The position numbers were made by a program, and so were the translations under genes. Below are positions 1,841-27,889 of a stretch of 64,000 nt of DNA, in pieces. The notes beneath the pieces are model-generated. The model worked only from the letters and a program-made list of their open reading frames with translations. It ran no database searches and was not told where the DNA came from. Position 1 is the first letter of the stretch, and each line of letters opens with the position of its first letter. Source of the DNA: Eledone cirrhosa. Its lineage: Eukaryota. The stretch spans positions 147,498,001-147,562,000 of the forward strand of contig OZ024741.1 of NCBI GenBank assembly GCA_964016885.1. Direction: 5' to 3'.

Positions 1841-1908
<68 letters not shown>
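1841..1908. repeat. (GATA)n tract forming the tail of a minus-strand Tx1 element
   Basis: Perfect GATA repeats directly abutting tttctttatt (minus-strand AATAAAGAAA). Confidence 0.95.
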
Positions 1909-1976
1909 TTCTTTATTTGCCACAAGGGCGCACAAGAAAAGGGGACAATACAAAGACACATGCCAGGGACTTTACA
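1909..1976 (-). mobile_element. Tx1-like retrotransposon 3' terminus (detached)
   Basis: Reverse complement matches the 3' UTR end of the copy at about 27496-27561, including AATAAA. Confidence 0.85.
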
Positions 1977-4519
1977 GTGGACGTGGACAAACCGCAGCGG
2001 GACATCTAGATGGTATTTAGATAGGTTCTTTATTAGAGAGAGAGAGACAGGATGTTAAACTGTCCACAAATGTACATCGTTGCCTATTCAGACCACAAAC
2101 TAGTCATCTGCATAGTCAACCATGATAGAATACATAGGCAAGGACCCAAATACTGGAAGCTGAACATGATGTTACCGACATGTAAAGCCTACAGTGAACG
2201 GATAAGTAGATTAGTTAAGCAACAGTTAACGGGAGCCATCGTCAACAATAGATGGTGATACTCTCTCAAGAGAGAAATTAGAGTAGAGTCGATAGCTTTT
2301 AGCAGAGAACTATCCTTAGAGAAAAACAAAACAGAAAGAGAACTAGTAGCCAAGGTAGAGGAGGCGCTTAGGAGTGGCAACGCGGCTAGAGTGCTAGCAG
2401 CGAGAACGGCACTGGACCAGTTATTCGATGCAAAACACGAAGGCTGCGTGGTCAGAAGTAAATCACGTGCTCTAGGAAACTAGGTAGCGAAAGCTGTTAG
2501 CTGTTAGCCGGAGTGGCAGAGGCGAAAAGTGGCAACAAGTCTACGATTCAGTCTTTGAAAGACCAAAACGGACGCATACTACGTGACTCCAAGCGGATGT
2601 GCGCGGCCTTTCAGCGGCACCTTGCGCATCTGTTCGAGTTGAGCGGCGGTGCGACGAACAGGGCAATGGACATCGGTTCATACCTCGACGGCCTGCCGCG
2701 ACTCTCAAGCATGGACGCCGAGTTCTGCGAAGACCGATCACAGCCACTGAGATACATGACGCTCTGGGCCGCTGCAAACGCACATCTCCCGGTCTAGATG
2801 GTCTACCCTATGAGTTTTACATAGGCATGCCGGACTTGTTCTCTGGCGTCCTCGAAGCCGTCTACTGCAACTGGCAGCAGAACGGGAGAATTCTCAGTTC
2901 TGCAGGCAGGGGCGTAGTAACGCTGATCAGGAAAGACGAGAAAAAGGGGGATGAACTAAGCAACTTTAGGCTCATAACTCTACTCAACACAGAGCTAAAG
3001 ATTTTGGTCAAGGTGTTAGAAATATTAGCGTCGAGAACCTGGTAGGAAAAGCGCAAACGTGTGCAATCCCGACTAGGTCCATACACGACAACCTCCACCT
3101 TATGCGATACATCATAGAGAGGGTAGGGTGTAAACCCGGCTTCGGTGGGGCTCTGATCAATTTAGATCAGTCTAAGGCGTTCCATGGCGTCGACCATCGA
3201 TACTTGGAAGCGGTTCTCAAGGCGGCCGGTTTCGGAACTGTCTTCAGAGGCTGGATCAAAGCAATGCACATCAACATCTGCTCGACGATCAAGGTGAACG
3301 GCTACCTATCAGAGCCGTTTGCAATCACGTGTTCCATCAAACAGGGATGCCCTCTCTCCTCCATTCTTTACATACTGACGCTAGAGCCGCTACTGCGGAA
3401 GTTGGAGCTTCTGCAGGGCATCCCGTTGGAACCGGGACTGCGGAAAGCGACGTCGGCTTATGCCGTCAACGTAACAGTAATGGTGTCGAAAACCTCGGAA
3501 ATCGGGGCGATTGCCAAATTACTGCAGGAATATGAAAGGCTCACAGGAGCAAAACTGAACCCGGACAAGTCCATCGGTTTGCAACTCGGAGCGTGGAGAG
3601 GCAAACCGATACCGTCCGACAGCGTCGTCGGACCGGTAAAATTGCTCGGGTTCTGGTTCGGTCCAGACCTCCAGGTGGAGAAAAACTGGAACGAGATCAC
3701 GGCCAAGGTATTTGCGCTCACTCAGAAGTGGGCAGAGTACAAACTATCCTTGAAAGGTCGAGCAGAGGTGGCGAACACTTTCATAGCGTCCGTCATCTAC
3801 TACCGCTTGACCGTCGTGCCTTGTCCCCGTGAACACCTCACCAAGATGGAACGTATGCTCTTCCAGTTCCTTTGGAAGAAGCAGGCTCCACTGGTGAGGA
3901 GATCCGTCTGCTATCAGCACCCTTCCAATGGAGGGCTTGGAATGCCGTGGCTGAAGATGCGCAAACATGCGCTGAGGCTACGGCATCTCCAGGTATTCCT
4001 CACCGACCAACCGGTGTGGGCACCGTTTGTGAGACAGGCCTTCCCACAACTTGTCTTGCTGAAGGAGCTGCAGTCCTGGGTCAAGCGGCGACCGAAGAAG
4101 ATGGGCGCCTGGCACATTGAATGCGCTCAGGCGCTCACAGTCTTCTGTCAAGCGGGCACAGCAATCAGTGGAGACTCCACTTCGGCATTCTATAGAGGTT
4201 TAGTACGTCACAAGGGCGACGACGTGCTCGGAGAGACTCTGGGCGTCGAAGACAACGAGCTCACCAGTCTGTTTGGTAGGACTTTCCGCCCGGGACACAT
4301 GGACAACTTCCAGAGGTCCCTGGCCTGGCAGTGCTACCGAGGAGCTCTACCCGTTCGAGACAAGATCCACAGGCACGGACGCCCCGGCAGGGATCCTTCC
4401 AAGAGGACGTGTCCAGGATCCGAGCAGGATATTGAAACCGTCTTGCACACAATTGTACACTTCCCGGGCGTAGCTGACCTGTGGAACTACGCAGAACAGT
4501 GGACGTGGACAAACCGCAG
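1974..4519 (+). mobile_element. Tx1/L1-clade non-LTR retrotransposon ORF2 segment (APE C-terminus, RT, C-terminal region), pseudogenised
   Basis: YSDH, GPKYWKLN, SPGLDGLPYEFY, NFRLITLLN, LDQSKAF, IKQGCPLS, degenerate YAVN for YADD, LSLKGRA. Multiple stops and frameshifts. Confidence 0.93.
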
Positions 4520-5118
4520 GGGGGAAGCGCCTCAAATGGGTTCTTTAATACCCCGTCGATAAAACAACCCTCAACTTCAGGAGCGTGTTGTGCAAGTACT
4601 CCTTTCTTCCTTTTGCTCGCTTCTTCAACCTACAGGCTTATAAACAGAGAAGGCCCAATCACTCGGGCCATTTTCGCTTCATTCACCCACCTTTCAGTAA
4701 ATTTACTGGGGTGCAGTGCCTCTCTCTCCACCCTGATTCTCCTTCTAAAGTGATACTTAAAGAACGGAATCAATTGTTGTCCGAAGAGAAAGGCATCTGT
4801 CCTCAGTCCTCTCAAACTCGTCCACCATATAACTTCTTTCACCATAGCCACCGTACAGAGGAAAAACCGCCTCTCTTTCGTTTTTGAAAGAGGCTGGCGG
4901 TTTGATCCTTACTATGGACTCGGCAGTCAACTGGATTTGTCCCATACGCGACAGCAGTTGTTCTGCATAGTTCCACAGGTCGGTTACGCCCGGGCAGTGT
5001 ACAATTGCGTGCAGGACTGTTTCAATGTCCTGCGCGCATCTTGGACACGTCCTCTTGGAAGGATCCCTGCCGGGGCGTCCGTGCCTGTAGAACTTGTCAC
5101 GAACCGGTAGAGCTCCTC
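4520..5118 (-). mobile_element. 5'-truncated Tx1 copy (ORF2 end plus part of 3' UTR)
   Basis: Near-identical to 26235-26850 and, in part, 26997-27435. Begins immediately after the GATA tail of the full-length copy. Confidence 0.9.
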
Positions 5119-5125
5119 GATAGAG

Positions 5126-5166
<41 letters not shown>

Positions 5167-5404
5167 TGTTTCTTTATTAGCCACAGGGGCACAAAAGAAG
5201 GGGACAAATACAAATGGGGAAGTTTACATACAATAAAAACGTGTAAAATGTTATCACAAATGCAATTTAAAAAGTTAGTCGATTTTCCCCAATGGGGGAG
5301 ACAGTTCATATGGGTAACACATACCCCCGAAAAAATGTGCAACCCTCAACTCCAGGAGTACGAAGAGTTTGTACTCCTTTCCTCTCCTCTTCCTTTTCCT
5401 CAAC

Positions 5405-8400
5405 CTACAGGCTGATATAGAGAGAAGTCCCATTCACTCGGGCCATTCTCGCCACTTTCACCCACCTTTCATAAAACTTGCTGGGGTACAGCACCTCTCT
5501 CTCCCTCCTGATTCTTCTTCCAAAGTAGTATTTGAAAAAAAGAATCAGTTGTTGGCCGGAGAGAAAGGTGCCTGACCTCAGCCCTTTCAACCTTGTCCAC
5601 GATACAACCTCTTTCGCCATAGCTATCACACAAAGGAAAACCGCCTCCCCTTCGTTTTTAAAGGAGGGTGGCGGTTTTATCATGACAATGGACTCGGTGG
5701 TCAACTGGATTGGTCCCACCCGCGACAATAGTCGTTCTACATAGCCCCACAGGTCTGGGACGCCCGGGCAGTGTATGAATGCGTGCGCGACGGTTTCTTC
5801 GTCTCGCACACACCTCGGACAGATCTTTGTTGCAGGGTACCTTCCCGGGAGCCCATGTCTGTAGAGCTTGTCTCGGACTGGTAGAGCTCCTCTGTAGCAC
5901 TGCCAGGCCAGGGACTTTTGGAAGTTGTCCATGGGTCCCGGGCGGAAGGTCCTACCGAACAGACTGGCCAGTTCATCTTCCTCTACGCCTAGAGTTTCAC
6001 CGAGCGCGTCGTCGCACTTGCTGCCGATCAACCCTCTATAGAATGACGAAGTGGAGTCTACACTGATCCCCGAGTCCGCCTGCCAGAGGGCTGTGAGCGC
6101 CTGAGCACATTCGATGTGCCAGTCGCCCATTTTCCTCGGTCTTTGCTTGACACAGGACTGGAGCTCGGTCAGCGAGACGAGTCGTGGGAAGGCTCGCCTC
6201 ACGAACGGGGCCCACGCCGGTTGTTCGGTGAGGAATACGTAGAGATGCCGCAGCCTGAGCGCGTGTTTGCGCATCATCAACCACGGCATCCCCAGCCCTC
6301 CGTTAGAAGGGTGTTGGCAGCAGATGGATCTTCTCACCAGAGGAGCCATCTTCTCACCAGAGGAGCCCGCCTCTTCCAAAGGAATTGGAAGAGCGCGCGC
6401 TCCATTTTGGTGAGCGTTTTGGCTGGACAAGGCACGACGGTCAAGCGGTAGTAGATGGCGGACGCTATAAAAGTGTTCGCCACCTCCGCTCGACCTTTCA
6501 AGGATAGTTTGCACTCGGCCCACTTCTGGGTGAGTGCAAACACCTTGGCCGTCACTTCGTTCCAGTTCTTCTCCACCTGGAGGTCCGGACCAAACCAGAC
6601 CCCGAGCAACTTTACCTGTCCTTCCGTTCAGCGTCCGACGACGCCATCGGAAGGCATCGGTTTGCCTCTCCGCGACCAGAGTTGCAAACCGATGGACTTG
6701 TCCCGGTTCAGCTTCGCTCCTGTGAAACTTTCGTATTCCTTCAGTAAGGTGCCGACTTCCTCGATTTGCGAGGCGCTCGACACCATTACTGTCACGTCGT
6801 CGGCGTAGGCCGACGCCGCTTTCCGCAGTCCCGGTTCCAGAGGGATGCCCTGCAATAGCTCCAACTTCCGCAGTAGTGGCTCGAGAGTCAGTACGTACAG
6901 AAGGGAGGAGAGAGGGCATCCCTGTCGAATGGATCGCGTAATATGGAACGGCTCCGAGAGGTAGCCGTTCACCTTGACCCTTGAGCAGATGTTGCTGTTG
7001 TGCATTGCAGCCTCTCTATGATGTATCGCATGAGGTGGAGGTTGTCGTGTATGGACCTGGTCGGGATTGCGCATGTCTGCGCTTCTCCCACCAGGTTCTC
7101 GACGACAAGCGCCAGCCTCTTTGCCAACACCTTGGCCAAAATCTGTAACTCTGTGTTTAGCAGAGTTATGGGCCGGAAGTTGCCTATGTCATCCCCCTTA
7201 TTCTCGTCCTTCCTGATTAGTGTGACCACGCCCCCGGTTACAGAACTGGGACTTCTCCCGTTCTGTTGCCAGTTACAGTAGACCGCTTCCAGGAGACCGG
7301 AGAATAAGTCCGGCATTGCTACGTAAAATTCGTAGGGTAGACCGTCGAGACCTGCAGATTTGCGTTTGCCGCATTGGCTCAGCGCGTCCCCTATCTCAGC
7401 GGCTGAAATCGGCTTTTCGCAGAACTTTGCCCCGCTGTCCGAGAGTCGCGGTAGGCCGTCGAGGTATGGACCGAAATCCATAGCCACTCCCAGCGCGCCG
7501 CCCCTCCCGAACAGTTGAGCAAAGTGCCGCTGAAAAGCCGCCAACATCTGCTTCCTCTCACGTATCACGCGTCCGTTTTGGTCCTTCAAAGACCGAATCG
7601 TGGACTTGTTGCCACTTTTTGCCTCCGTCACTCGGGCCCAGCTAACAGCTTTGGCTCCCTCGTTTCCGAGAACACGTATTTTGCTTCTGACGACGCAGCC
7701 CTCGTGCTTTGCGTCGAAGAACTGGTCCAAGGCCGTTCTCTTGGCTGGCTACGTTGCCACTTCTAATTGCCTCTTCTACTTTATCTACCAGTTCCTTCTC
7801 GGTTCTATTTCTATCTAACGCTAATTCTTTACTAAAAACTAACCAGTTTAATCTAACTGCCCTCTTGAGAGAGTACCACCATCTGTTGTTGACAATTGCC
7901 CCCGTCAAACGCTGCTTAACTAGTGTGTTAATCCGCTTACTGTAAGCTTTGTTTGTCGGTAATGACAAGTTTAGCTTCCAGTAACCGGGTCCCTGTCTAT
8001 GAGTTCTATCAAGGTTGACCACTCCGGTCAACAACTTGTGATCCGAATAGTCAACCATGAACATTCGTGGACAGCTTAATATGTCCCTATCCTTATTTCT
8101 AACTAGGAACCTATCTAGGTACGACCTGGATGTTCCACTGCGATTACTCCACGTCCACCGTGGCACAGTCGGAAAATCCAGTCGATATCTATCGGCCAGG
8201 TCAAATCGGTCGATTAACTGTTTGAGGCTGTTACACCTCCCATTATCGGGACATGCTCCCACATAGTCCCAACGTGCATCTAGGATTCCATTCCAGTCCC
8301 CCACTAAAAGCAAGGAGTGGAACGTTCCCAGAAAAGTCTCTAGACGTTTGAAGAAGTCTGGCCGCGGTGTCCCGGATGGGGCATATGCGGCAACCAGCCT

Positions 8401-8720
8401 GAAGGCTCCACCTTCACTACCGTCAACGTCTAGGACCACCAGTCGACCCTCCGGGTCCAGATGTACCGTCTGTGTTACGAGGCCCAGGTGTTTCCGCAGA
8501 AAAACGGCAACTCCGCCCCCACCCCCCGGTTGACAGAGAGATGCGTAGATCTCAAAGTCATCGAAGATGGGGGGGCCAGCTGTCGCTCGCTGTGGATCCT
8601 GGACTCGCAAATGGCTACCACATCCATACTGTGCGACCTGAGGTCGTTTAAGAGCTTGCCCTGTTTCCAGGGCATCCCCAGGCCGCGTACGTTCACACAT
8701 CCAACTCTTATATTGGCCAT
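5405..8720 (-). pseudogene. Tx1 ORF2: APE endonuclease plus reverse transcriptase (frameshifted, internal RT deletion near 7008)
   Basis: MANIRVGCVNVRGL, GDWN, SYLDRF, YSDH, GYWKLN, DGLPYEFY, RQGCPLS, YADD, CPRC..ETVAHAFIHC. The segment containing LDQSKAF is missing. Confidence 0.92.
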
Positions 8721-10741
8721 GTTGGTGCTGAAAAGTTAAAAGAGGAAAAGAGATCACTCACCCTTCGTCTCCTGGGGACCAGGCTGCAAGATTTCCATGG
8801 GGTGTTGGAGGGGTTGTCTGGGTGGATGGTGGTTTCCGGCGGGGTGGGGACGGAGATGTTTGGTGGGGTGGGGTCTGGTGGGATGGGGGTGTCTGAGGTG
8901 GGGAGACATTTGAGAAGGACGCGGTTAAGTGGTTTCACGCAGGAATTCCCCACATCCTTCTCAAATGTTTCTTTTAGGGACCTATAAGTTTGTATAGGGA
9001 CCCTAATCAGTTTCAGGTTCAGTTTTTTGTTATTTTTAATAGAGTGGGCGAAAGTTTTCCCTTCGGTTTTCACCGAAGGGTCGTTCGTGATGATCTCCAT
9101 TAGTGTTTTGTTTTCAGTGTTTATGTAAGTGTAAGTGTAATTTTTTTCTTTTGTGTTTGTTTTTGTCTGTAGTTCTTGTATGTGCTTTCGTTTTGTTGTA
9201 GGTATTTTGTTTTCAGGAGGCGGGGGTTTTGTTTGTGATGTTTTTGTTGTTTGTGTTGGTGGTTGTATGTTTGTGGTAGTGTTTGCAGGTTTTTGCTTTT
9301 GTGATGTCTTTTCTTTCTTTTCGAGCGATGGGGTTCTCCCTCGTCTTCACTGGGTGATGGCGAGATAGCCTCATCTGTTGTATCGTCTGTGTGATTGGGG
9401 AGGGGTATGTCTTGGGGAGCTGTTGTGTCTGTATGTGATTTTGCAGTGGTTTTAGGTGGAGTGGGGTTGGGTGGGACTGTGTTTGTTGTGGTTATTTTTG
9501 TGTGTTGGTGTTGTTGTGGTGGTGGTGGTGTTGGTGGTTGTGTTGTTTTGATGGGTGTCGGCAGAAGAGCCTTTTTTTTACTCATTAATTTAGGACAGGG
9601 AGCTCTCATGTGACCCCTGCTAAAGCAATGGTAACATGAAGGCCGCCTACCCTCAACCGAAAAGTTTATGCAGGTGAGTCCGTCCAGGAGTACACGTTGT
9701 AGGATCATAGCTATTCGCTCTGGGCTCATTAGCACCAGAACTTCAATGCTAGTTCTATTGAATACATCTCTGGGGGACTTTCCTACTGACAGTATTCTGT
9801 CTTCATCAAAATTGATGAAGCCGCACAGTATCCACCATATGTTCACCTTTGGTGTGACATTCGTGATTTTAATCTTTTGTGACCTTTTTCCCGTGTATGT
9901 AGGGAAAAAGGTATACAGGTTGGATATAATTGGCGACACAGAGTAATTTTGGGCCGTCAATTGATCCTTCATCAGTACCGAAATACTTCCAAAATGTTTG
10001 CTTCTTTGAATGAATGCAATATCATTCATTGAACTTTTGAAAACCAGTTCAATTTCTTTCTGTGACAATTGGACTGGTTTTCGGGTAGAATTGGAAACAG
10101 TCCTAAAACTATCGTTTTGAGAGCAGTTTCCTTGCGAATTTCTACCGGAGAATTGATGCTGAAAGCACCATTTTTTTCGAAAGTGACATCTCCTAGCGTC
10201 CTTTAAAAGTTGTTCGGCATTTGTTATGTCGAGATATGTCAGTTCCTCCTTTTTTTGAACTGTCTGTGCAAAGGAGATTTTTGGTTTCTTTGTGGAATTA
10301 TCCGTCTTGGTGGTGTTGTCATTAATGTTGTTATTCTTGTTGTTATTCTTGTTGTCACTGATATTTATATTATTCGTATTTTCCTTGGTGTTGGTGTTGG
10401 TGTTGTTGTTGTCTTTGATGCTGGTGTTATTGGTGTTGTCGTTATTGTTTTTCTTTGTTGTTGTTGTCATTGTTGTTTTTATCATCATTATTGGTGTTGT
10501 TGTTATTTTTGTTGTCATTGAACTGTTTGTTGTCATTTGTGTTGTTTGGATATGAATTTGTTTTTACATTTTCATTTCGTCTTTCCATCTCCATAGTATC
10601 TAGGGAAGAAGACGATGTTGACTGCGAGCTCTGTAGTCTTACCGATTCTCCACCATCATTATCGTTGAACGCAGCGTTCATAATGTAATCAAACTTTTTA
10701 CGAGGTATTTTCCAAAATTCGATGGAGAAAAAATTTTTCAA
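8708..10741 (-). pseudogene. Tx1 ORF1 (gag-like, zinc knuckle), frameshifted
   Basis: ORFs 10442-10741, 9121-10536 and 8708-9100. CYHCFSRGHMRAPC (CX2CX4HX4C), Asn/Thr-rich N-terminus, Pro/Thr-rich linker. Confidence 0.85.
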
Positions 10742-10903
10742 ACGAATATTTCGCCCCTGTAGGGGCGAAAATGATTTGACCCACCACCTGAAGGTCCAGA
10801 TGGGGGGTCAAGTTACACAATAATATAAAATTTAACTGAAAACTCACGTTTTTTTCTTACATAAATTAACGGAAACTTCTCCGCGAAGTTACACACGTCT
10901 GGT

Positions 10904-10907
10904 AGAG

Positions 10908-10938
<31 letters not shown>

Positions 10939-10939
10939 G

Positions 10940-11003
<64 letters not shown>
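10904..11003. repeat. (GATA)n tract
   Basis: About 100 bp of near-perfect GATA repeats. Confidence 0.95.
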
Positions 11004-11005
<2 letters not shown>

Positions 11006-11847: not shown

Positions 11848-12379
11848 TAAAACCCACAGAAAAATGCACACGGGCACACACCGGACACATATACATACAA
11901 ATCATATAATGTTTAGGAAACAGTATATATTTTAAGGTGGGAAAGTTGTTATTTTTTTTACAGCCACCATTTCATAATTAGTAGAAGTGGAGTGAACATC
12001 TATCTAAGCAATCAATCATCGATTACTAACAATCGATTTTGATATAGCTCTAGAAGACGCGGCACTAATCGTCAGAGGAAATCGTCTTATAAGTTCCAAT
12101 AAAGTACAAAATACCTTTATATCTGTCATGTTCCGAGAAGTAGTCAATCCATACCTCGTGGTGTGAATTAATTTTTAACAGTGGTGGCAGATATAAATAG
12201 GACTGGACGTCGCGTCCGCTAGTAAGAGGTTCTATGACACAGCACAGTCAGCTCAACAAATTAAGAATTTTGAACAGATATATACTAATTTAAAGTATCA
12301 TAACATATATGATATGTATGATGAATATGTTTCTCAGCAGAAAAATTCAATAGACATTTGTCCAGAACATTAGTAATTC

Positions 12380-12640
12380 AAATTTAAAAACAAATATGCA
12401 TATAGCCATAATATATCACTAAAGAAACACATAGTATTTGTACATATATATATATATAAAGCATATAATATTTAGGAAATAGTTTATACTTTAAAGTGGA
12501 AAAGTTATAAGTAAAATAATAACTTTTCCACTTTAAAGTATATAGTTTCCTAAATATTATGCGCTTTATATATATATGTGTACACAATACTATATTTTCT
12601 CTAGTGATATATTATGGCTATATACATATTTTTTTAATTT
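12380..12640. repeat. Foldback/MITE-like palindrome with ~125-bp arms
   Basis: Left arm ...tatagccataatatatcacta...tactttaaagtggaaaagttat matches the reverse complement of ataacttttccactttaaagta...tagtgatatattatggctata. Spacer about 10 bp. Confidence 0.85.
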
Positions 12641-12712
12641 AGATTATTGATGCGCTGGACAAACGACCATTGAGCTTTTCTACTGAGAAACATATTCATC
12701 ATATATATTATA

Positions 12713-13258
12713 CTAGTTGACGTACCCAGCTTCGCCTGGGTAAACAGATGATAAGAGAAAAGGTCCTTATTTACACCCTTCACAACTCTGTATGTTAGAC
12801 TGACAGACAGGCACACAGACAGATAAACTGCGTGGCGATTGTGGAACGCCGCACGTATACACACATACACGCATGGAAACGCGCACACGCACGCAAACTT
12901 AAACACGCACCCGTGCACTTACACACACGCACACACGTTGATAGTTTTTTACTTTCTGTAGAACGCTGCACGCACGCACACACACATAAACATACGCGCA
13001 CGTACATACACACGCACACATGTTAATAGTTATTGCTTTCCTTCCCCTCTTATTTCCACACACATCACACACACACATGTCTCTACACTGACACATATAG
13101 CGTTCACACTCTCCCCTCTCACTCCCTCATTGGCATTATGCATATTAATTTCAGTTTGGCGTCGTTGGGGTGGGCAGAGTCGTTTGAAACCTATGAACCA
13201 ATGATAATCGAGAATTATGACACACGGAATACTGACGTTGTTCAAATTAATATATAGA
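12713..13258 (-). mobile_element. Non-autonomous Helitron (internal-deletion derivative of the adjacent autonomous element)
   Basis: Minus strand starts TCTATATATTAATTTG and ends with hairpin TACCCAGGCGAAGCTGGGTA followed by CTAG|T. Body is homologous to 18490-18845. Confidence 0.9.
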
Positions 13259-16200: not shown

Positions 16201-18845
16201 TCCCTATTATGCTTGAACCACTCAGTCAATTCCGTCTTAGGAGGTGGTGCGTTAGCAATTCTTTCGACACCTCTTCTAGTGTCCTGAAAACAGACCATTT
16301 GCCTATATTCTCTAAGTGAACCGTCAGTTTCTGAACGCTGGGTTTGCGTTCATTGAGATCAAAATCGAACAATCTCTAGCAAACTTCGCTAGATCCAATC
16401 GAGCAAACATCCTGGAACCTGCCAACTTCATCTCCTTGGTTCGCTTCTTCATTCCTGACATTGATCATTGCCCGATCCTGACCTTTGTAAACATATTTGA
16501 ATAGATATTTGCAAGCTTTCACTGAGCTACAAATTTCCACATTAATATGACAACGATATTTCATAATCAAATATGGATTGTAAGGCACAACCCATTGATT
16601 TGTAACCTGTCGACCGTTTACATTTTCGACCAAACCGCCATCTGCAGGCGACCGTCTTCTGTATGAGGGATGAGCATCCCCATCGTTCCAGGAAGTGTTC
16701 GTGACAAAAGATTTCGGAAAGTGCTTACTGCATTGGCCATTTTTCATGCAAGGCGCTTTCCGATTTGCCACTCCGCATTGGTTGTGGACCATTGACTTTG
16801 CCACCGAGTTGCGTAGTGCACAATATCAGGACGGTCCTTTGGCTGTTGTCCTGGCAAAAGTGCATCCTTAATATCAGTCCATTCAGGATTACATGCAACC
16901 GTTATAAACAAATCTGGCTTTCCAAACTTTCTGACAATAGCCATTGCATCCTGGTAGCGAATGTTCATATATCTCGATGAACGACGATGGCAAAATGATG
17001 CGTCGACTAATTTGCTTGTAATTGGCATCATCGGCTGTTATCGCATCCTGTATATTATTATACAATTCAGCTCTGATATGTTGCTGATGTGTAGCTATAT
17101 AATTTAGCCTTTGATTTTCGATCTTTGCGAATGCCATACAACAGTATTTCTGGAACAATCTGCTGGCTTGAAATAGCGCATTTCTCTGTTGATTCCTCTC
17201 GTTCAAATGGAACGCGTAAAAGCCGCGAATCGAATTATTGTGTCTATTGCCACCTCCCTGTTGATGCTGATTCTCATGATCATCTAAATGAACAGACATA
17301 TTCCATCCATTTTCACCTTTTGGGAATAAAAGAACATAATGCAATGGATCGTATGCCCTATTTGACTCATTGATAGTCTTGAGACCACCACATCTGCGAT
17401 TGAGGAGGATATCTCTCGAACCAGGCTTATCGTCCATCAACACAGCAACTTCACGAAATCCTTCAGGGGCATTATATCGCCGTTCGTGTTGATTCCTTGG
17501 CACTGCGTCAGCCTTAATCACCAATGTTTGCTGCTGAACATTTTGCGGTTCAGCCACCAACATGAAATCCATAACATAAGGATTACACTGTCTAAGCCAT
17601 GATTGCAAATCACGGATCAAATCACTTAACCTTTGCCGTTCAAGTTCAATCATATTTCCCGGCAACTTCATCCAACCGATCCTGATATCCTTCTCCGATT
17701 CACTATAATCTGGATCGTTAACGTAAGTTTGAGCGAATCGAGGTCTCTCTCCTGAGGTAACTTCTAAATTACCGATACAATGATACAAACGGCCTTGAAT
17801 GACTACATTCGGTTGCCATGCTCCACTCTCAAACATCTCACTAACTCTCTGCGATGCTAAAACTAATGAATTGTTAATTTGCCGCGAATATTTGCGCAGT
17901 AATCTACCTCGGCCTCCTTGATCACCCCACATACTTAGTATTTTAAACTCCGGTGACTCCTCATCATCCGGCATTCGCAAGGGTTCTAGTTGAACTGCTC
18001 CTTTATGACAGCACATTGTGGCCCACGTCTTTTTATGCCTCAATGTGGACACAATGTGGACACTCTGTTCGTCCACCAATCTGAAAATGACACGGTTGCC
18101 ATGATCCATTTTTAATATCATCCGTTGCTGTCTTTTTACTGGAATGAGGAGCACTTTGGCGACACATTCTCTGAACTTCTGTATTGCGCTGGCGCTGTTC
18201 AGCCAGCTCCTCTTCATCCATCGCAGCACGCCGTTGCTGCTGAATTCTGGTCATCTGCTGATGATGCTCAGCCAGTTCGTCTTCAACCATCGCAGCACGC
18301 CGTCGCTGTTTGGCTCCAGTGTTTCGTTGGCGTTGTTCCGCCAGCTCCACTTCATTGCTGGCTGCACGCCGTCGCCGCTGTTGTTCTCTGTTTGATAAAG
18401 TCGAATTGCTTTTATTATCAGTGTTCATTTCGAGCAATTGTCAAAAAATGTGACAATAATAAATATAAAAGATGTCCCTCAATGTAAAGAAAGGTCCCTA
18501 TTTACTCCATTCACAACTCTGTGTATGTTAGACTAACAGACAGGCACACAGACAGATAAACTGCGTGGTGATTGTGGAACGCCACACACATACACGCATG
18601 GAAACGCGCACACGCACGCAAACTTACATACGCACACACTCACACATGTTGATAGTTTTTACTCTCTGTGGAACGCTGCACGCACGCACACACACATAAA
18701 CATACGCGCACGTACATTGGCATTATGCATATTAATTTCAGTTTGGCGTCGTTGAGGTGGGCGGAGTCGTTTGAAACCTATAAACCAATGATAATCGAGA
18801 ATTATGACACACGGAATACTGACGTTCTTCAAATTAATAAATAGA
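13259..18845 (-). mobile_element. Autonomous-type Helitron (decayed)
   Basis: 5' A|TCTATTTATTAATTTG at 18845, 3' hairpin plus CTAG at 13259-13262, RepHel coding sequence inside. Confidence 0.92.
14216..18437 (-). pseudogene. Helitron RepHel transposase (HUH Rep plus PIF1-like SF1 helicase), fragmented
   Basis: FGKPDLFITVACNPEW (Rep motif 1), YLFKYVYKG (motif 3), DAPGGTG, IIWDEAPM, GGDFRQVLP, GLCNGTRL, MTVNKAQGQT, FSHGQLFVAASRV. HUH motif 2 is not seen (deletion near 16815). Confidence 0.93.
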
Positions 18846-18949: not shown

Positions 18950-19640
18950 ATTTGGAACACATATATCGAAGAAAAAATGTCCATTTGGAATATGGTCAAG
19001 AATAAGAACAACGCCAAAGTTTATGAAAAGTGGTTGAATTCTACTATGTTAATTTTACCCCAAACACTGGAAATAAAAGCATTAAATTATGAACCAGAAT
19101 AACAAAGAATAATATCGAAAAGAATGACTTTGGAGAAAAGGGACATGGTAGAAATAAACCAAAATACAAAGATATTGATTAACAAATGGTGGAAAACTGG
19201 GTTAAAAATAGGATTGCATTTGCAAAATATAAGAAATTTGGAAACAAGAACATAAAAAATAAAGCCTTGTACCATTCCAATGGTGGAAGAAGAGTGAAAA
19301 TAAGTACTGCATTAAGAAAGTATACAACTCAGACAACCCATTTATAAAAAGGTTAACAAAGAAGCAAATATATATGGAATCGTAATATGACATCAAACCA
19401 TAAATTTTACATACCAAAGGCCTAAACCAAAGCTTAGTAAATTCAGAATAAACAAAGTTGATAATAGAAAATCCACATTCAATATATATTATGATAACTG
19501 GACAGTCTTTTTGTCTGTCTGTCACATGCGAATGCTACGACCTGTCAAAGATTAATTAGAATTCATGGAACACAAATATAATATACAAAAGTGTGGAGAG
19601 CAAATATTCTAAAATGCTTTCATTCATACCAGTAATCAGT
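18950..19640 (+). mobile_element. Possible highly decayed Penelope-like fragment
   Basis: Broken reading frames ending in RFMEHKYNIQK, resembling the GIY-YIG R..EH motif. Weak. Confidence 0.3.
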
Positions 19641-19647
19641 ATTCTCT

Positions 19648-21320
19648 CGGGATTGCGGAAAGCGGTGTCGGCCTACGCCGATGACGTAACAGTAATGGTG
19701 TCGACGGCCTCGGAAATCGGGGCGATCGGCACCTTTCTGGAGGAGTACGAAAGGTTTACAGGGACTAAGCTGAACCGGGACAAGTCGATCGGTCTGCAAC
19801 TCGGCATGCGGAGGGGCAGATCGATGCCCTCCGGTGGCATCGTCGGGCGCTGGACGGAGGGCCCGGTGAAGTTGCTTGAGGTCTGGTTCGGACCAGACCT
19901 CCAGGTGGAAAAGAACTGGGGTGAGGTAACGAACAGGGTGTTTGCACTGACCCAGAAGTGGGCCGAGTGCAAACTGTCCCTGAAAGGTCGGGCGGAGGTG
20001 GCGAACACTTATATAGCGTCCGTCATCTACTACCGCCTGACCGTTGTGCCTTGCCCAGGGGAAACGCTCACCAAAATGGAGCGCGCACTCTTCCAATTCC
20101 TTTGGAAGAAGCGGGCTCCTATGGTGAGGAGATCCATCTGCTGTCAACACCCTTCGAAAGGAGGGCTGGGGATACCGTGGCTAATGATACGTAAACACGC
20201 ATTAAGGCTACGGCACCTCCAGGTATTCCTCACCGGTCAACCGGTGTGGGCCCCGTTTGTGAGGCGAGACTTTCCCAGACTCGTCTCGCTCACCGAGCTG
20301 CAATCCTGAGTCAAGCAAAGACCGAGAAAACTAGGCGCCTGGCACACCGAGTGTACCCAGGCGCTCACGGCTCTCTGGCAGGCGGAACCGGCTGTCAGTG
20401 GAGAATCCACCTCGTCATTCTATAGAGGGCTGGTGGTTAGCAGGTGCGACGACGCCCTCGGAGAAGCCCTAGGCATGGAGGAAGACGAACTGGCCAACCT
20501 GTTCGGTAGGACATTCAGCCCGGGACCCATGGATAACTTCCAGAGGTCCCTGGCCTGGCAGTGCTACCGAGGGGCTCTGCCCATTCGAGAAAGGCTCTAC
20601 AGACACGGGCGCCCGGGTAGGGACCCCTCGAAAAAGATCTGTCCCAGATGCGTGTGCGACGAGGAAACCGTTGCACACGCATTGGTACACTGCTCGGGCA
20701 TTGCCGATCTGTGGGGCTATGTCGAACAACTGCTGTCAAGGGTGGGACCGATCCGGTTGACCACCGCGTCTATTGTAACGATCAAGCCGCCTCCCCTCTT
20801 CAAAAACGAAGGAGAGGCGGTGTTTCTGTGCATAATAGCCATGGCGAAAGAGGTTGTATGGTGGACGCGTCTGAAAGGACTGAGGTCAGACACCTTTCTC
20901 TCTGGCCAACAACTGGTCCGTTTCTTCCGATATCATTTCGGAAGAAGGATCAGGATGGAGAGATAGCTGCTGCACCCCAGCCGTTTTTATGAAAGATGGG
21001 TGAAAGTAGCGAGAATAGCCCGTGTGAATGGGCCTTCACTCTACATCAGACTATAGGTGAGGAAGATGAAAGATCAAGGGAGCACCCCCTTTCTGTGCTC
21101 CTGAGGAGAAGGGTTGCACACTTTTTCGGGGGTGGGTGCGACCCCCCAAGGCGCCTCCTCCCTATTGAGGATTTTGTTATTAAATTTATTTTTGTTATAT
21201 TTTATTTTATCTTTATATCTTGTTATTGCCTCCTCCTTATTGAGGACGCCTTTTTATGTAAACTCCCCCCATTGTACTTGTCCCACTTTTTGATGCCCTG
21301 GTGGCAAATATAAAGAAAGT
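19648..21320 (+). mobile_element. 5'-truncated Tx1 copy
   Basis: YADD, LSLKGRA, CPRC..H..C, 3' UTR, then a degenerate TATC tail at 21321-21354. Confidence 0.92.
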
Positions 21321-21354
21321 TATCTATTATCTATCATCTATCTCTATCTCTATC

Positions 21355-24300
21355 GGACGTACGGTAGATCGCTGGTAAGTTTTTGTAAAATTTTCCATAC
21401 AAAAACAGAATTCATTGTGTAAAATGTTATATTGTTTGATAGATTAACACCCAGGGTGAATTGTCAGCTGGGTGATAATCTCAGTTTTCGCTCCACAGGG
21501 GCGGAAATTTAATTTAAAAAATTGACAAGTTTTAAAAAATGTTCCTAACTTTAACAATGTGTGACTTACAACGAACGCTAGACTGCGAGAAGAGAGGGAA
21601 AGAGACAGATATAAACGTTATATCTCCCTCTAGTTCCATAGAAGTATCTATGGAAACGAACAACAACAAAACTTCGTTTCGTAAAGAAATGGATATTTAC
21701 ACAACAATAGATGAAAATAACAGCCCACAACAGACACCAAAAAATAAGAAAATACAGAAATTGAAACAATTGACACAACTACAAACGAAAAAACCAACAA
21801 CAACAAAATCGAAAAAACAACATTCGCACAGACAGTGATAAATAAAACAGAGTACAAACACATCGACATAAGCAACTCCAAACAAATGTTGACCGATGCA
21901 AAATAATTCATAACCTTTGAAGAAAAGTGTGGGTTTCATATAAACTCACCCTTGCAAATTAAACGAGTAACAGTTCGAAGGACAGTAACCTTCCGAACTG
22001 TTTCAAATCAAACGAAAAAACCGGTATTCCTCAGTCAAGGACAAATTGAAACAACCCTGAAAGAGGCTCTGTCGGACATTGATTTTATGCAGAGGGCCAG
22101 ACTATATGGAAGTGTTTCGGTACTTTTTACAAGCGAGGCCCTCGCACAAAAGCATTCTGTTACACCAGTGATCACAAAAGCACACACCTTTTTCCCTACT
22201 TACATGGGAAAAAGAACTCAAAAGATTAAAATAAATAATATACCACCGAACATCAACATTTGGTGGATCTTGGCCGGTTTTATAGAGCCATAAAGTGATA
22301 CAATTCTTTCGGTCAGGAAATCGACCAGACAAAGGTGGGCAGGGACAAATTTGGAAATTCTGATACAAATGACACCAGAAAGAATTTCCAAAATCCTCGA
22401 AAGAGTGCTGGTCGACAACCAGAACTACATCAACATCGTAACTGGGGGGGCAGAAAGCCTCACTGTCTTCGATGTGCAAGCACATCACACCTAAAAGCCT
22501 CCTGCCCTTTACAAACAAATCTTTTTTTTTAAAAGTACTTTTACCAACACCAAAACAATCACCACCACAACCACCACCACCACCACAACAACAACAACAA
22601 TAACAGACGAAACGAGCAAACACACCAAAACAAACAGCCACTCAACCAACAACAGAAAAAAACAGAGACAACACCCCTGAAGAACACAGCCCCACCCCAT
22701 CTCACTCCATCAAACACTACCACAAACACACACACCGAAACACCACCACCACACAACACACCCCTACATCACACTCCTGACGATGATTATTCATCGACGG
22801 ATGAAGCTGCTTCTCCTTCTTTAAGTGAAGAAGAGGGAGAGCCGCGGAAATCTAAAAAACAAAAAAAGAGACACCACAAAACCACAAAACTCCAATCACC
22901 AACACCAACACACAACCACAGACCCAAACATAAAACACAAACAACACCACAGTTAAACATCCCCCTACAAGCAAACCCAACACTAACACCACCCCAAACA
23001 CAAGCACCCACCATAAAAAGAAAACTCCCGGACGAGCAACAAACTAAAACAACACAACAAAAACACAAACAACAATACGCTTACATCAACACAAACAACA
23101 AGAGTTTGATGGAGGTCATCTTCCAAAACCCCAAGGTGGAGACGGAGGGCAAAACTTTCGTCAAGGCAGAATCGTCTCCACGCCTTAAACTTATAAGGGT
23201 TTCTATGGAAACCTATAATGACCTGAAAAATAAATTTTCACAGGACGTGGGCAACCCCTGCCAGAAACCCATCAACCGCGTCCTGTTAAAATGTTTCCCT
23301 ACCCCACCCAACACCCCATCCAGCATCCAAATGGAGATTGAACAACCCGATCTCCAGGAAACGAAAAGGTAAGTGCACCTTTTCGTCCATTTTCTCCAAC
23401 TTTTCTTCACCAACATGGCTAGTTTACGAGTTGGAAGCGTAAATGTGCGTGGCCTAGGGATGCCCTGGAAACAGGGTAACTTTTAAACGACCTTAGGTCA
23501 CACAGTATGGATGTGATAGCCATCACCGAGTCCAGGATCCACAACAGGCAGCAACTAACCCCCATCTTCGACGACTTTGAGATCTACTCATCTCTCTCTC
23601 AGCCAGGAGGTGGAGGAGGAGTGGCTATCATGTTTCGGAAGAACCTGGACGGCGAAGTACAGCAACAAGTACACTTGAACCCGGAGGGTAGACTGGTAGT
23701 CCTAGACGTGAACAGTATTGGAGGTGGAGCCTTCAGACTGGTGGCCGTCTATGCCCCGACCGGGCAATCGCAATCACGGCCAGACTTCTTTAAGCGTCTA
23801 GAGTCTTTTCTGGAAACGTCTCGCTCCTTACTTTTAGTGGGGGACTGGAATGGTATCCTAGATGCACGATGGGACTATGTGGGAGCATGTCCAGTAGAGG
23901 GGGGTGCAACAGCCTCAAAATTTTAATCGGCCAATGACAACTGGCCGATAGGCATCGACTGGATTTCCCGACTGCACCACAGTGGACGTGGGCAAACCGC
24001 AGTGGGACATCTAGATCGTATTTAAATAGGTTCTTCATTAGAGAAAGGGACAAGGAGATGTTAAGCTGTCCACGAATGCACATGGTTGCCTATTGAGATC
24101 ACAAATTAGTCGTCTGCTTAGTCAACCGTGATAGAACACATAGACAAGGACCCGGATACTGGAAGCTGAACGTGTCGTTGCCGGCACGTAAAGCTTACAG
24201 TGAACGCATATGTAGTCTAGTCAAGCAACAGTTAACGGGAGCCATCGTCAACAATAGATGGTGGTACTCGCTCAAGAAAGCAATTAGAATAGAATCGATA

Positions 24301-26975
24301 GGATTTAGAAGAGAGTTATCCTTAGAGAAAAACAAAATAGAAAGAGAACTAGTAGCCAAGGTAGAGGAGGCACTTAGAAGTGGCAACGCGGCTAGAGTGT
24401 TAGCGTCGAGAACGGCACTGGACCAGTTATTCGATGCGAAACAAGAAGGCTGTGTGGTCAGAAGCAAAACACGTGCTCTAGGAAACTAAGGAGCGAAAGC
24501 TGTCAGCTGGGCCCGAGTGGCGGAGGCGAAAAGTGGCAACAAGTCCACGATTCGGTCCTTGAAAGACCAAAACGGACGCGTGCTACTTGACCCCAAGCAA
24601 ATGTGCGAGGCCTTTCAGCAGCACTTTGCGCGACTGTTTAAGCAGAACGACAGTGAGCCGAACGGGGCAATGGACTTTAGTTCATACCTCGACGGCCTGC
24701 CGCGTCTCTCGAACACGGACGCCGAGTCCTGCGAAGACCGATCACAGCCACTGAGATACGGGACGCTCTGGGCCGCTGCGGGAAACGCAAGTCACCCGGT
24801 CTAGATGGTCTACCCTATGAGTTTTACATAGACATGCCGGACTTGTTCTCTGGCGTTATGGAAGCCGTCTACTGCAATTGGCAGCAGAACAGGAGAATTC
24901 CCAGTTATGCAGGCAAGGGCGTAGTAACGCTGATCAGGAAAGACGAGAACAAGGGGGACGAAATTAACAACTTCAGGCCCATAACTCTGCTCAACACAGA
25001 GTTAAAGATTTTGGCCAAGGTGCTAGCGACGAGGTTGGCGCTTGTCGTCGAGAACCTGGTAGGAAAAGCGCAAACGTGTGCAATCCCGACCAGGTAAATA
25101 CACGACAACCTCCACCTCATGCGATACATCATAGAGAGGATTGGTAGTAAACCCGGCTTCGGTGGGGCTCTGATCAATTTGGATCAGTCTAAGGCATTCT
25201 ATAGGGTCGACCATCGATACTTGGAAGCGGTTCTCAAGGCGGCCGGTTTCGATCCCGTTTTCAGAGGCTGGATCGAGGCGATGCACACCAGCATCTGCTC
25301 GAGGGTCAAGGTGAACGGCTACCTATCGGAGCCGTTCGCAATCACGCGTTCCATTCGACGAGGGTGCTCTCTCTCCTCCATTCTGTATGTATTGACTATA
25401 GAGCCACTACTGCGGAAATTGGAGCTGTTGCAGGGCATCTCTCTAGAACCGGGACTGCGCAAAGTGGCGTCGGCTTGCAACTCGGTACGTGGAGAGGCAA
25501 ACCGATGACGTCCGACAGCGTCGTTGGACGTTGGATGGACGGACCGGTGAAATTGCTCGGGGTCTGGTTCGGTACAGACCTCCAGGTGGAGAAAAACTGG
25601 AACGAAGTCACGGCCAAGGTCTTTGCGCTCACCCAGAAGTGGGCAGAGTGCAAACTGTCCTTGAAAGGTCGAGCGGAGGTGGCGAACACTTTCATAGCGT
25701 CCGTCATCTACTACCGCTTGACTGTCGTGCCTTGTCCCCGTGAACACCTCGCCAAGATGGAACGCATGCTCTTCCAGTTTCTGTGGAAGAAGTAGGCTTC
25801 GCTGGTGAGGAGATCCGTCTGCTGTCAGCACCCTTCCAATGGAGGGCTGGGAATGCCGTCGCTGATGATGCGCAAACTTGCGCTGAGGCTGCGGCATCTC
25901 CAGGTATTCCTCACCGACCCCCAACCGGTGTGGACACCGTTTGTGAGACAGGCTTTCCCACAGCTCGTCTCGCTGACGGAGCTGCAGTCCTGGGTCAAGA
26001 AAGACCGAAAACGATGGGCGCCTGACACATTGAATGCGCTCAGGCGTTCACAGTCCTCTGGCAAGTGGGCGCAGCAATCAGTGGAGACTCCACTTCGACA
26101 TTTTATAGAGGGAACGTACGTTACAAGGGCGACGACGTGCTCAGAGAGACTCTGGGCATCGAAGACGTTCAGCTCACCAGTCTGTTTGGTAGGACTTTCC
26201 GCCCGGGACCTATGGACAACTTCCAGAAGTCCCTGGCCTGGCAGTGCTACCGAGGAGCTCTACCGGTTCGTGACAAGATCTACAGGCACGAACGCCCCGG
26301 CAGGGATCCTTCTAAGAGGACGTGTCCAAGATGCGAGCAGGACATTGAAACCGTCCTGCACGCAATAGTACACTGCCCGGGCGTAACCGACCTGTGGAAC
26401 TATGCAGAACAATTGCTGTCGCGTATGGGACAAATCCAGTTGACTGCCGAGTCCATAGTAAGGATCAAACCGCCAGCCTCTTTCAAAAACGAAAGAGAGG
26501 CGGTTTTCCTCTGTACAGTGGCTATGGTGAAAGAAGTTATATGGTGGACGTAATTGAGAGGACTGAGGACAGATGCCTTTCTCTCCGGACAACAATTGAT
26601 TCCCTTCTTTAAGTATCACTTTAGAAGGAGAATCAGAGTGGAGAGAGAGGCACTGCACCCCAGTAAATTTACTGAAAGGTGGGTGAATGAAGCGAAAATG
26701 GCCCGAGTGATTGGGCCTTCTCTGTTTATAAGCCTGTAGGTTGAAGAAGAGAGCAAAAGGAAGAAAGGAGCATTTGCACAACACGCTCCTGGAGTTGAGG
26801 GTTGTTCTATCGACGGTGTATTAAACAACCCATTTGTAGTGCTTCCCCCCTATTGGGGATTTCGATTGTTGTAATTGTTTGTTTTTATATTTTTTACACG
26901 ACTGTATGCAAAATCCCCGGCATGTCTTTGTATTGTCCCCTTTTGTTGTGCGTCCTTGTGACAAATAAAGAAATA
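21355..26975 (+). mobile_element. Full-length (decayed) Tx1 copy flanked by TATC repeats
   Basis: 5' UTR, ORF1 (CLRCASTSHLKASC knuckle), ORF2 from ATG near 23415 to 26739 with APE/RT motifs (YADD region deleted near 25475), AATAAA at 26964, TATC tail 26976-26996. Confidence 0.95.
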
Positions 26976-26996
26976 TATCTATCTATCTATCTATCT

Positions 26997-27561
26997 GCTG
27001 TCGCGTATGGGACAAATACAGTTGACTGCCGAGTCCATAGTAAGGATCAAAGCGCCAGACTCTTTCAAAAACGAAAGAGAGGCGGTTTTCCTCTGTACGG
27101 TGGCTATGGTGAAAGAAGTTATATGGTGGACGAGGTTGAGAGGACTGAGGACAGATGCCTTTCTCTCCGGACAACAATTGATTCCCTTCTTTAAGTATCA
27201 CTTTAGAAGGAGAATCAGGGTGGAGAGAGAGGCACTGCACCCCAGTAAATTTACTGAAAGGTGGGTGAATGAAGCGAAAATGGCCCGAGTGATTGGGCCT
27301 TCTCTGTTTATAAGCCTGTAGGTTGAGGAAGAGAGCAAAAGGAAGAAAGGAGCACTTGCACAACACGCTCCTCGAGTTGAGGGTTGTTCTATCGACGGGG
27401 TATTAAACAACCCATTTGTGGCGCCTCCCCCCCCCCCCCTATTGGGGATTTCGATTGTTGAAATTGTTTGTTTTTATATTTTTTACACGACTGTATGTAA
27501 AATCCCCGGCATGTCTTTGTATTGTCCCCTTTCTTGTTGCGCCCTTGTGGCTAATAAAGAA
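26997..27561 (+). mobile_element. 5'-truncated Tx1 copy in tandem, with (TATC)n tail 27562-27590
   Basis: Near-identical to 26415-26975, AATAAA at 27553. Confidence 0.93.
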
Positions 27562-27889
27562 ATCTATCTATCTATCTATCTATCTATCTAGAAACATATC
27601 TCTATATTTTTCTATCTATATGTACACACACCCATGTACCCACAAAGAATCGAGAGGAGTCTTTAGTTGTGTCAGGGGCCTGGCAACTCCTTTAGTGTTT
27701 GTAATCTGCATAATAAATGCACCCAGTTAACTCTGAAAGATCAGTAGATCCATTTGAGTACTGATTGGATTGAGGCAGAATGTCGAATCCTTTCTAGCAG
27801 GGAAAACGGATATTAAACGATGATGAGGCGGATGAAGAGGAGGAGAAGGGGGAATATGAGGAGAAGGAGGAATATGATGATGATGATAT

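Follow-up and report, generated by a model that had tools for sequence, protein, structure and literature searches.

A TATC-inserting LINE lineage in Eledone cirrhosa whose target is likely set by pairing of its read-through RNA

LINEs that are specific to a microsatellite have been described in the Tx1 clade, where Kibi and Koshi of teleosts occupy (TC)n and (TTC)n and crocodilian Tx1 families occupy (TTCC)n and (TTTC)n (PMC3812793, PMC4494074). The mechanism of microsatellite targeting is described as poorly understood, and the endonuclease is credited with it (PMC3812793). For R2Ol, R1Bm, and the I factor, the 3' end of the RNA anneals to the target (PMC6795142, PMC6530143, PMC6007223). The 3' repeat in the RNA of RTE-clade LINEs and SINEs has been proposed to influence site choice, and near-identical elephant SINEs with different tails have different duplication starts (PMC6007223). 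Octopus annotations count L1-Tx1 families, with no targets stated in the portions of those reports available to us (PMC13282606, PMC8967140). The lineage described here resembles Kibi, Koshi, and the crocodilian families in being an APE-type LINE, probably of the Tx1 clade, that is specific to a microsatellite. However, its target is (TATC)n and its relatives target (ATT)n and AATA(T), and no TATC target is given in the available parts of PMC3812793 and PMC4494074. A literature search found no description of a GATA/TATC-specific LINE. Microsatellite-specific Tx1 families are known; the (ATT)n-targeting sister clade, a SINE that shares its signature, and the AATA(T) offshoot are new here.

The window, which is the whole 64-kb stretch of DNA analyzed, holds copies A to E of the lineage. 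On the minus strand, the full-length copy B (5167..10902), with an ORF1 of the RRM-RRM-CCHC type and an APE-RT-zf-RVT ORF2, has on its 5' side a (TATC)26 tract (10903..11005) that terminates in a TCTCTA head variant, and it is followed by a (TATC)12 junction tract (5119..5166). Abutting this tract is copy A (4519..5118), which is 5' truncated and of the D/E subfamily; the final 68 nt of its 3' untranslated region (1909..1976) lie next to a downstream (TATC)17 tract (1841..1908). Within copy A sits an ORF2 fragment on the plus strand (1974..4497), D-like (87-90% identical to D) and with a 24-nt repeat at each border. The plus-strand series comprises the 5'-truncated copy C (19648..21320), a degenerate junction tract of nine TATC units (21321..21354), the full-length but decayed copy D (21355..26975), a (TATC)5 junction tract (26976..26996), the 5'-truncated copy E (26997..27564), which is 94.6% identical to the 3' end of copy D, and a (TATC)6 tract (27565..27590), or seven units when taken from 27562. 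The domains found in the window lineage were APE (PF03372), RT (PF00078), and zf-RVT (PF13966). Both full-length copies are frameshifted, and copy B, 94-96% identical to the intact copy L107, also has a 135-nt deletion at position 7011.

An earlier note on this window had read five 3' ends as running directly into TATC repeats, and all five were confirmed: AATAAAGAAA (1917-1908 and 5178-5169 on the minus strand; 26964-26973 and 27553-27562) or, in copy C, AATATAAAGAAA (21307-21318) leads, after two further bases, into TATC repeats, without poly(A). It was also correct that copies B and D begin immediately 3' of a TATC tract, as do the two truncated copies that start at 5118 and 26997, and that at least three diverged subfamilies share these ends, with B, C, and D being 77-80% identical to one another. 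The proposed chains need two corrections. The 5' junction of copy C at 19648 is non-TATC. In the minus-strand chain copy A does follow copy B, but the copy starting at 5118 is composite, and polarity is not uniform there because the 2.5-kb ORF2 segment lies inverted in its 3' untranslated region.

This APE-RT LINE belongs to the L1 group and probably to its Tx1 side. The intact copy L107 encodes an ORF1 of 638 amino acids and an ORF2 of 1145 amino acids with the same three domains, and the best solved-structure match of ORF2 was human L1 ORF2p (E 7e-52), with R2 at 2e-22. In an RT tree (LG+G4 model) that included RTE and other outgroups on long branches, the lineage grouped with fish elements with a ZCCHC3-type ORF1 (99/93), and nine vertebrate-L1-like rows fell outside that group (99/100); labels were taken from Pfam domains and organism names. 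The fish set includes BAC82621 and BAD04856, which we take to be Tx1 deposits of Kojima and Fujiwara, and the lineage is separate from the group holding them rather than nested inside it. A predicted ORF1 model (pLDDT 83) matched tandem-RRM structures at an E value of about 1e-4, and the atlas lead was to ZCCHC3 RBD clusters at 0.90. A CCHC motif is visible in the ORF1 alignment, although Pfam detects it only weakly (E 0.24). Comparing ORF1 profiles against fish protein P0042 gave no match. Tx1 is marked by a Type I ORF1 (RRM plus a CCHC knuckle) rather than by Transposase_22 (PMC5203782), and by its predicted fold and CCHC motif the ORF1 of this lineage is of that type. The Tx1 placement proposed earlier is backed by ORF1 type and by the tree, in a comparison that had no Tx1-labeled row.

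We collected copies genome-wide by exact 3'-end patterns, one subfamily having 6,249 such ends. Among 98 sampled subfamily B copies, TATC was present at the 5' junction of all 13 full-length and 62 of the 85 truncated copies (75/98), and a TATC or TC repeat was present at the 3' side in 93/98. The same 5'-flank test was positive at 0.25-1.2% of control positions, excluding a chance association. Truncated copies cannot carry a 5' head of their own. Among truncated B copies with 97% or higher identity to an intact copy, 36 of 39 followed TATC, as did 13 of 19 truncated copies with the D/E pattern. At either side, and in a single orientation, the proportion with the target exceeded the 20% of flanks that PMC4494074 takes as its threshold. 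The lineage accounts for 8,688 of the 53,610 genomic (TATC)3 tract starts, each directly 3' of a lineage end. The targeting suggested from the window was upheld genome-wide. It is very likely that this LINE lineage inserts into (TATC)n with target-site duplication. The association was weaker for truncated copies of subfamily C (5/15 preceded by TATC) and for B copies below 94% identity (7/17), and these two counts stand against the explanation favored below.

Target-site duplications are 12-25 nt long and begin at TATC two bases 3' of AATAAAGAAA. This range holds for the ten copies in which the duplication crosses the boundary of the tract (L045, L057, L083, L089, L094, L097, L104, L130, L135, and L140); it starts two bases after GAAA in nine of them and four bases later in L094. 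The register of GAAA, two nucleotides, and TATC was found at 122 of 138 ends, and a poly(A) or A-run was found at none of the 138 ends examined. These duplications, together with 85 of the 98 sampled copies being shorter than full length, are a signature of target-primed reverse transcription (TPRT). Full-length copies carry a TATC/TC head about 13 nt long at the 5' end. When the 3' ends were folded, none showed significant structure (z -0.02 to -1.6), although they repeatedly contain a small GCC-loop-GGC hairpin.

Related elements provide comparisons. The sister clade, with an ORF2 69% identical to that of the TATC family, targets (ATT)n; its 5'-truncated copy in the window (56426..57515, plus strand) ends in AATAAAGAAATC and then (ATT)17. 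A SINE about 190 nt long occurs twice in tandem within the ATT tract (57526..57912, plus strand). SINE duplications begin with ATTAT, the same signature as in the sister family; its head is tRNA-like by eye alone, and ARAGORN found no tRNA in the 64-kb window. Waldo, Mino, and Dong belong to the R1 and R4 clades. These non-LTR elements are specific to the ACAY, AC, and TAA microsatellites, respectively (PMC3812793), and the Dong target is the same in sequence as that of the ATT sister, which is, however, an APE element of another clade. An unrelated RTE-like LINE (29089..31051, minus strand) has a genuine (TAGA)n tail at its 3' end (29089-29110) and served as a tail-only control; elsewhere it is also a landing site (L135). 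RTE elements have encoded tails and a preference of one or two bases (PMC6007223), unlike the TATC lineage. The RTE of this genome behaves in that way, with its element-encoded 3' repeat, which the TATC lineage lacks, and with GATA at only 1 of 26 5' junctions of truncated copies.

The subfamily of copy D is the origin of a young offshoot (92-96% identical to copy D) that inserts at AATA(T), a non-repeat motif, and has 123 exact ends. Offshoot copies are 98.3-99.1% identical to four TATC copies, and their duplications begin with AATA(T). In a sample picked by an internal single-nucleotide polymorphism and not by flank, all 14 copies with a second marker allele had AATA flanks. The offshoot tree is poorly resolved, with zero starred branches. 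The intact ORF2s of L316 and L322, from subfamilies with different targets, are 98.7% identical. APE residues 1-245 are identical between AATA copies L314, L316, and L332 and TATC copy L364, and no fixed endonuclease-domain change was found between offshoot and parent. We also considered mobilization of the offshoot by the protein of the ATT family, which is unlikely: flank-unbiased ends were AATA in 7/30 and ATTAT in 0/30, and ORF2 is intact in three copies of the offshoot.

A target switch without a change in the endonuclease domain suggests that the element's own RNA end likely helps to choose the landing site. We consider the best explanation of the whole, a TATC-inserting LINE with a target likely set by pairing of its read-through RNA, to be reasonably probable, and the sequence comparisons lean slightly toward the specific proposal that target choice is set by such pairing with the nicked strand. 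The APE is predicted to nick the GATA strand and to tolerate other A/T-rich sites. The transcript would extend past AAUAAA into the flank, which is UAUC repeats or, for the offshoot, AAUAU. The free DNA 3' end would anneal to this stretch and prime reverse transcription, bypassing any poly(A), and a second nick 12-25 nt downstream would create the duplication. An off-target source copy would in this way found a subfamily with a new target. We give about an even chance to the further proposal that specificity is programmed by RNA rather than protein, with the read-through 3' flank acting as a short guide among loosely nicked A/T-rich sites and one off-target landing giving rise to a subfamily whose target is new and heritable (TATC to AATAT and, earlier, perhaps TATC versus ATT), the endonuclease being unchanged. 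The likeness to R2Ol, R1Bm, and the I factor would lie in a target-bearing RNA end that pairs with the nicked strand, as we infer for the TATC lineage, and in an exact, poly(A)-free 3' junction. In R2Ol, however, annealing makes insertion at a fixed rDNA site more accurate and more efficient, whereas here a subfamily appears to have been retargeted with its endonuclease domain unchanged.

A possible but less likely reading is that the ORF2 protein itself reads the target, that D932Y or an ORF1 change drove the switch to AATA(T), and that RNA pairing sets only the register. D932Y is the sole fixed ORF2 change and is perfectly linked with the switch (Y in 15/15 AATA copies and D in 15/15 TATC-type copies), and one ORF1-region site is fixed in all four AATA copies that span it. 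However, residue 932 is variable in homologues (D, E, N, A, W, S, R, or L) and adjoins an indel, and the switch is linked almost equally tightly to two silent changes, a pattern that hitchhiking in a new source copy would produce. The lack of fixed APE changes likewise speaks against this reading. In its favor, the APE is more diverged than the RT between the TATC and ATT clades (61-63% versus 76% identity), which fits endonuclease-driven specificity at that depth, and a partner protein that reads ATTAT sites would account for the presence of the SINE there. The same basis is assumed for Kibi and Koshi, and the endonuclease is held to be the main determinant of target choice (PMC4494074).

The read-through pairing account also differs from the earlier note in the origin of the 3' TATC, which had been taken as an encoded (TATC)n tail that replaces poly(A) and adds a new repeat with each insertion. 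We reject this reading as improbable. The repeats after most B ends would suit it, as would the TATC still present at the 3' end of most of the older copies whose 5' flank is not TATC, and a few RNA-templated extra units are possible in pure tracts. However, in the boundary-spanning cases the 5' flank contains a match to the 3' TATC units, and L104 lacks any 3' unit; TATCTATC followed 0/30 offshoot ends; in the ATT-system SINE the duplication begins immediately after the end in 36/45 copies; and 8 of the 23 non-TATC B 5' junctions are internal deletions or inversions. The 3' "tail" is mostly duplicated target, and where the duplication extends beyond the tract end the 3' TATC is the target copied. 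Pure-repeat junctions cannot reveal whether units were added. The idea that the element regenerates its own target stands in that a tract is left on both sides by the 12-25 nt duplication, to which full-length copies add their head, but not by an encoded tail. The RTE with its TAGA tail is a clearer example of an element that seeds new GATA tracts.

For 41 of the 98 B copies, the 400 nt downstream contain a further copy of the lineage, with the same polarity in 41/41. Because insertion has a single orientation and copies 12-25 nt of tract each time, head-to-tail arrays follow, and these have the look of successive insertions into junction tracts with a shared polarity. Survival or unequal crossing-over in GATA tracts without active targeting, with arrays as tandem duplications, is rejected as highly improbable and largely refuted: near-identical neighbors with identical junctions do exist (L077, L103, and L107/L108), but the youngest copies are the most enriched, truncation points differ among copies, the upstream neighbor is from another subfamily in 30/38 cases, and duplications were directly observed.

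This genome offers a natural experiment on how site-specific LINEs switch targets. If true, RNA programming would explain the frequent target changes among Tx1 families and would offer an RNA-retargetable APE retrotransposon. The lineage shapes the GATA microsatellite landscape of its host, which is relevant to users of GATA markers in this group.

The window, part of a 3.0-Gb genome, holds five copies (A to E) of an APE-RT LINE lineage inserting into (TATC)n. Two of them, B (10902>5167) and D (21355>26975), span the full length but carry frameshifts, and copies C and E are both 5'-truncated. Copy A (5118>1909), also truncated, contains a 2.5-kb inverted ORF2 fragment absent from the earlier note; an identical 24-nt APE-region sequence lies at both of its borders (1974-1997 and 4496-4519). 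The positions of the five 3' ends, TATC tracts, and chains that the note had listed were borne out, but the 5' junction of copy C is not TATC. Pairwise identity among B, C, and D, each representing a subfamily, is 77-80%. Between the two arrays lies a decayed Helitron (14216-18250, minus strand; PF14214 and PF21530 Pif1 helicase), near which pieces around 12759-13258 recur at 18490-18845. Self-complementary stretches of 190-500 nt with arms 80-83% identical (12308-12712, 31704-32210, and 50102-50289) are probably MITE-like elements.

Intact copies are present outside the window. The B reference, L107, to which copy B is 94-96% identical, encodes an ORF1 of 638 aa and an ORF2 of 1145 aa, the latter containing APE, RT, and zf-RVT. 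The APE alignment of the lineage retains the catalytic motifs of the L1 endonuclease. Two RRMs and a CCHC knuckle form the ORF1 core, as indicated by predicted fold, structure match, and alignment, and ORF1 is thus a predicted Type I ORF1 as described in the available text of PMC5203782. An RT tree built from 43 chosen rows joined the lineage to fish elements bearing ZCCHC3-type ORF1 domains (support, 99/93), with nine vertebrate-L1-like rows standing apart from both. Within the L1 group, this result would put the lineage on the side of Tx1, in a tree in which no row carried a Tx1 label. The available portions of PMC4889948 and PMC2684134 give no family name for the fish reference proteins. 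The annotated Siphateles boraxobius protein P0042, with an APE at its start and ZCCHC3-type ORF1 domains, may be a gene model fusing two tandem Tx1-like copies. By word match only, at least half of the 3'-region words of the element are present in six DNA runs from three organisms, which makes it probable that other species carry close relatives.

An exact 22-mer from the B 3' end has 6,249 genome matches, and its reversed control has 0. We sampled 98 of the first 100 listed 22-mer places on contig C1, picked by position and not by flank. A TATC or TC repeat followed the 3' end in 93 of the 98 copies, and TATC preceded the 5' junction in 13/13 full-length and 62/85 truncated copies versus 0.25-1.2% of control positions, which upholds the claim of TATC targeting. 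Among truncated copies, 5' TATC was found in 36/39 at ≥97% identity to L107 and in 7/17 below 94%; the 23 without it comprised 8 internal deletions or inversions and 15 other flanks. The best 30 5'-end matches of B, scored by eye, all followed a TATC or TC tract. At 30 loci with the 3'-end pattern shared by copies D and E, 5' TATC was found at 13/19 junctions that could be scored (the other 11 extended beyond the locus), and at 30 subfamily C loci at only 5/15 (15 extended beyond), indicating that subfamily C is either looser in targeting or older. The B copies L002, L004, L020, L056, L060, and L070 are flanked by (TC)n instead of (TATC)n, which could reflect relaxed targeting, slippage after insertion, or a further offshoot.

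An RTE-like LINE in the same genome (9,054 exact 27-mer 3' motifs; loci L191-L220; window 29089-31051, minus strand) has a short (TAGA)n tail, frequently beside (TA)n, and served as the control. TAGA repeats were found at 20/30 of its 3' ends under a lenient pattern, and GATA at only 1/26 of its 5' junctions. RTE tails were also landing sites of the TATC lineage (L055 and L135), and L135 duplicated part of the RTE end.

Target-site duplications are readable where they cross the tract end. Screening gave 23 non-pure matches among 63, of which ten were counted as boundary-crossing duplications of 12-25 nt (L045, L057, L083, L089, L094, L097, L104, L130, L135, and L140); the others were explained by the end of an adjacent copy, by short microhomology, or by tandem duplication. 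The duplication started two bases past AATAAAGAAA in 9/10 cases and four bases later in L094, and the 3' end of L104 lacks any TATC unit. In a sample of 138 lineage ends enriched for array neighbours, 122 read GAAA, 2 nt, and TATC, and none was followed by an A-run. The boundary-crossing duplications, L104, and this fixed register indicate that the 3' repeat consists mostly of duplicated target sequence and is not the TATC tail previously proposed, with the proviso that pure tracts could hide extra units.

A TCTCT variant occurred at the 5' junction of 22/30 full-length but only 3/62 truncated copies, so a few repeat-like bases are carried with the RNA at the 5' end. In two full-length copies at non-TATC sites, belonging to a young AATA(T)-inserting offshoot of subfamily D, a 13-nt duplication is followed by 13 nt of TATC/TC repeat and then the 5' UTR; the two share similar flanks and may not be independent. 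TATC 5' flanks followed another copy's 3' end in 43/75 cases, and 41 of 98 copies had a lineage copy ≤400 nt downstream, always in the same polarity (41/41). The upstream neighbour belonged to a different subfamily in 30/38 cases. These counts fit arrays formed as copies inserted again and again into junction tracts. Of 53,610 (TATC)3 starts genome-wide, 8,688 directly follow the 3' signal (reversed control, 0), a rough figure that misses TC-TATC-phase ends and counts restarts inside broken tracts.

A sister LINE family inserts into (ATT)n (loci L141-L190). Its window copy (56426-57463, plus strand; to 57515 with the ATT tract) ends in AATAAAGAAATC(ATT)n, and its 3'-end 23-mer has 1,777 genome matches. 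By eye, an ATT-type repeat followed 30/30 of its 3' ends. ATT was present at the 5' junction of 10/10 full-length and 9/18 truncated copies (10/38 copies ran off), compared with a background of 1.1-1.7% and 1/98 TATC-family junctions. In RT trees, the TATC and ATT families form one group each and are closely related, with identities of 61-63% in APE and 76% in RT. The sister family also builds arrays, has an intact ORF2 in L185, and shows at least four different 5' ends. Broken related copies at 58142-62549 and 63077-64000 (minus strand) have an ORF1 CCHC region like that of L172 and no intact 3' end; a 560-nt inverted duplicate lies within them at 58142-58702. An abundant SINE of ~190 nt with a tRNA-like head (32830-33016, 36626-36810, 39909-40094 [minus], 50330-50514, 50976-51162, 55825-55951 [minus], and 57526-57912) has a 3' end similar to that of the LINE. 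Among 96 copies, 45 cases were readable; in 36 of these the duplication started directly after the last base, 31 of the 36 with ATTAT. Judged from these sequences, the SINE is likely mobilised by the sister LINE.

In the offshoot of subfamily D, the target switched from TATC to AATA(T) without a fixed change in the endonuclease domain. Seven of 30 D/E-pattern 3' ends read AATA instead of TATC, and exact AATA-type ends number 123 genome-wide. One 30-locus set contained eight or nine distinct loci with duplications beginning with AATA, and another set contained several more; TATCTATC followed the AATA-type 3' end in 0/30. Identity is 99.4-99.8% among the AATA copies and 98.3-99.1% between them and four TATC copies. 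An internal-SNP search, used to avoid flank selection, gave 279 matches; the 30 loci examined comprised 17 AATA, 12 TATC, and 1 AATC-TATC. All 14 copies scored for one allele of a second SNP were AATA, and the 12 with the other allele were 11 TATC-type and 1 AATA, with 4 copies unscored. The AATC-TATC flank (L350/L368) looks intermediate between TATC and AATA (offshoot loci, L283-L316 and L325-L370). The tree, which has no starred branch, suggests a position for the offshoot within the TATC copies.

Cleavage for poly(A) addition usually occurs 10-30 nt past AAUAAA. The element ends ~6 nt past this signal, and therefore a transcript running past it should carry flank sequence. The nicked strand would pair with this flank RNA and prime reverse transcription, which the fixed register and lack of poly(A) fit; such pairing would also hide the nick position, which is unreadable. 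RNA-target pairing was demonstrated for R2Ol (PMC6795142 and PMC6530143) and proposed for RTE (PMC6007223), in the portions of these papers available. Under flank pairing, a single source copy landing at an AATAT site would give rise to the AATA(T) offshoot. We consider it less likely that D932Y in ORF2, or a change in ORF1, altered specificity instead. Across 35 aligned copies, the fixed or near-fixed ORF2 differences are two silent sites and D932Y, which is tightly linked to the target (15/15 versus 15/15 in the two groups). However, homologues vary at site 932, which is located between the RT core and the zinc motif, and APE residues 1-245 of three AATA copies are identical to those of TATC copy L364, other copies carrying private changes or frameshifts. 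In ORF1, for which AATA coverage is limited to two to four copies, at least one site is linked.

Microsatellite-specific APE LINEs are established, including Kibi, Koshi, Waldo, and Mino (PMC3812793) and crocodilian TTCC/TTTC families (PMC4494074), and Tx1 and R1 are the target-specific APE clades (PMC4640811), according to the available text of these sources. The available text of octopus repeat papers (PMC13282606, PMC8967140, and PMC9115989) names L1-Tx1, RTE, or Dong and gives no targets. We found no TATC-specific LINE in the literature searched. If its TATC target were all that was new, the lineage would simply add one more member to these established elements. It is set apart by three targets within one lineage and, above all, by the switch with an unchanged endonuclease domain, and these make it directly testable how site-specific LINEs change targets.
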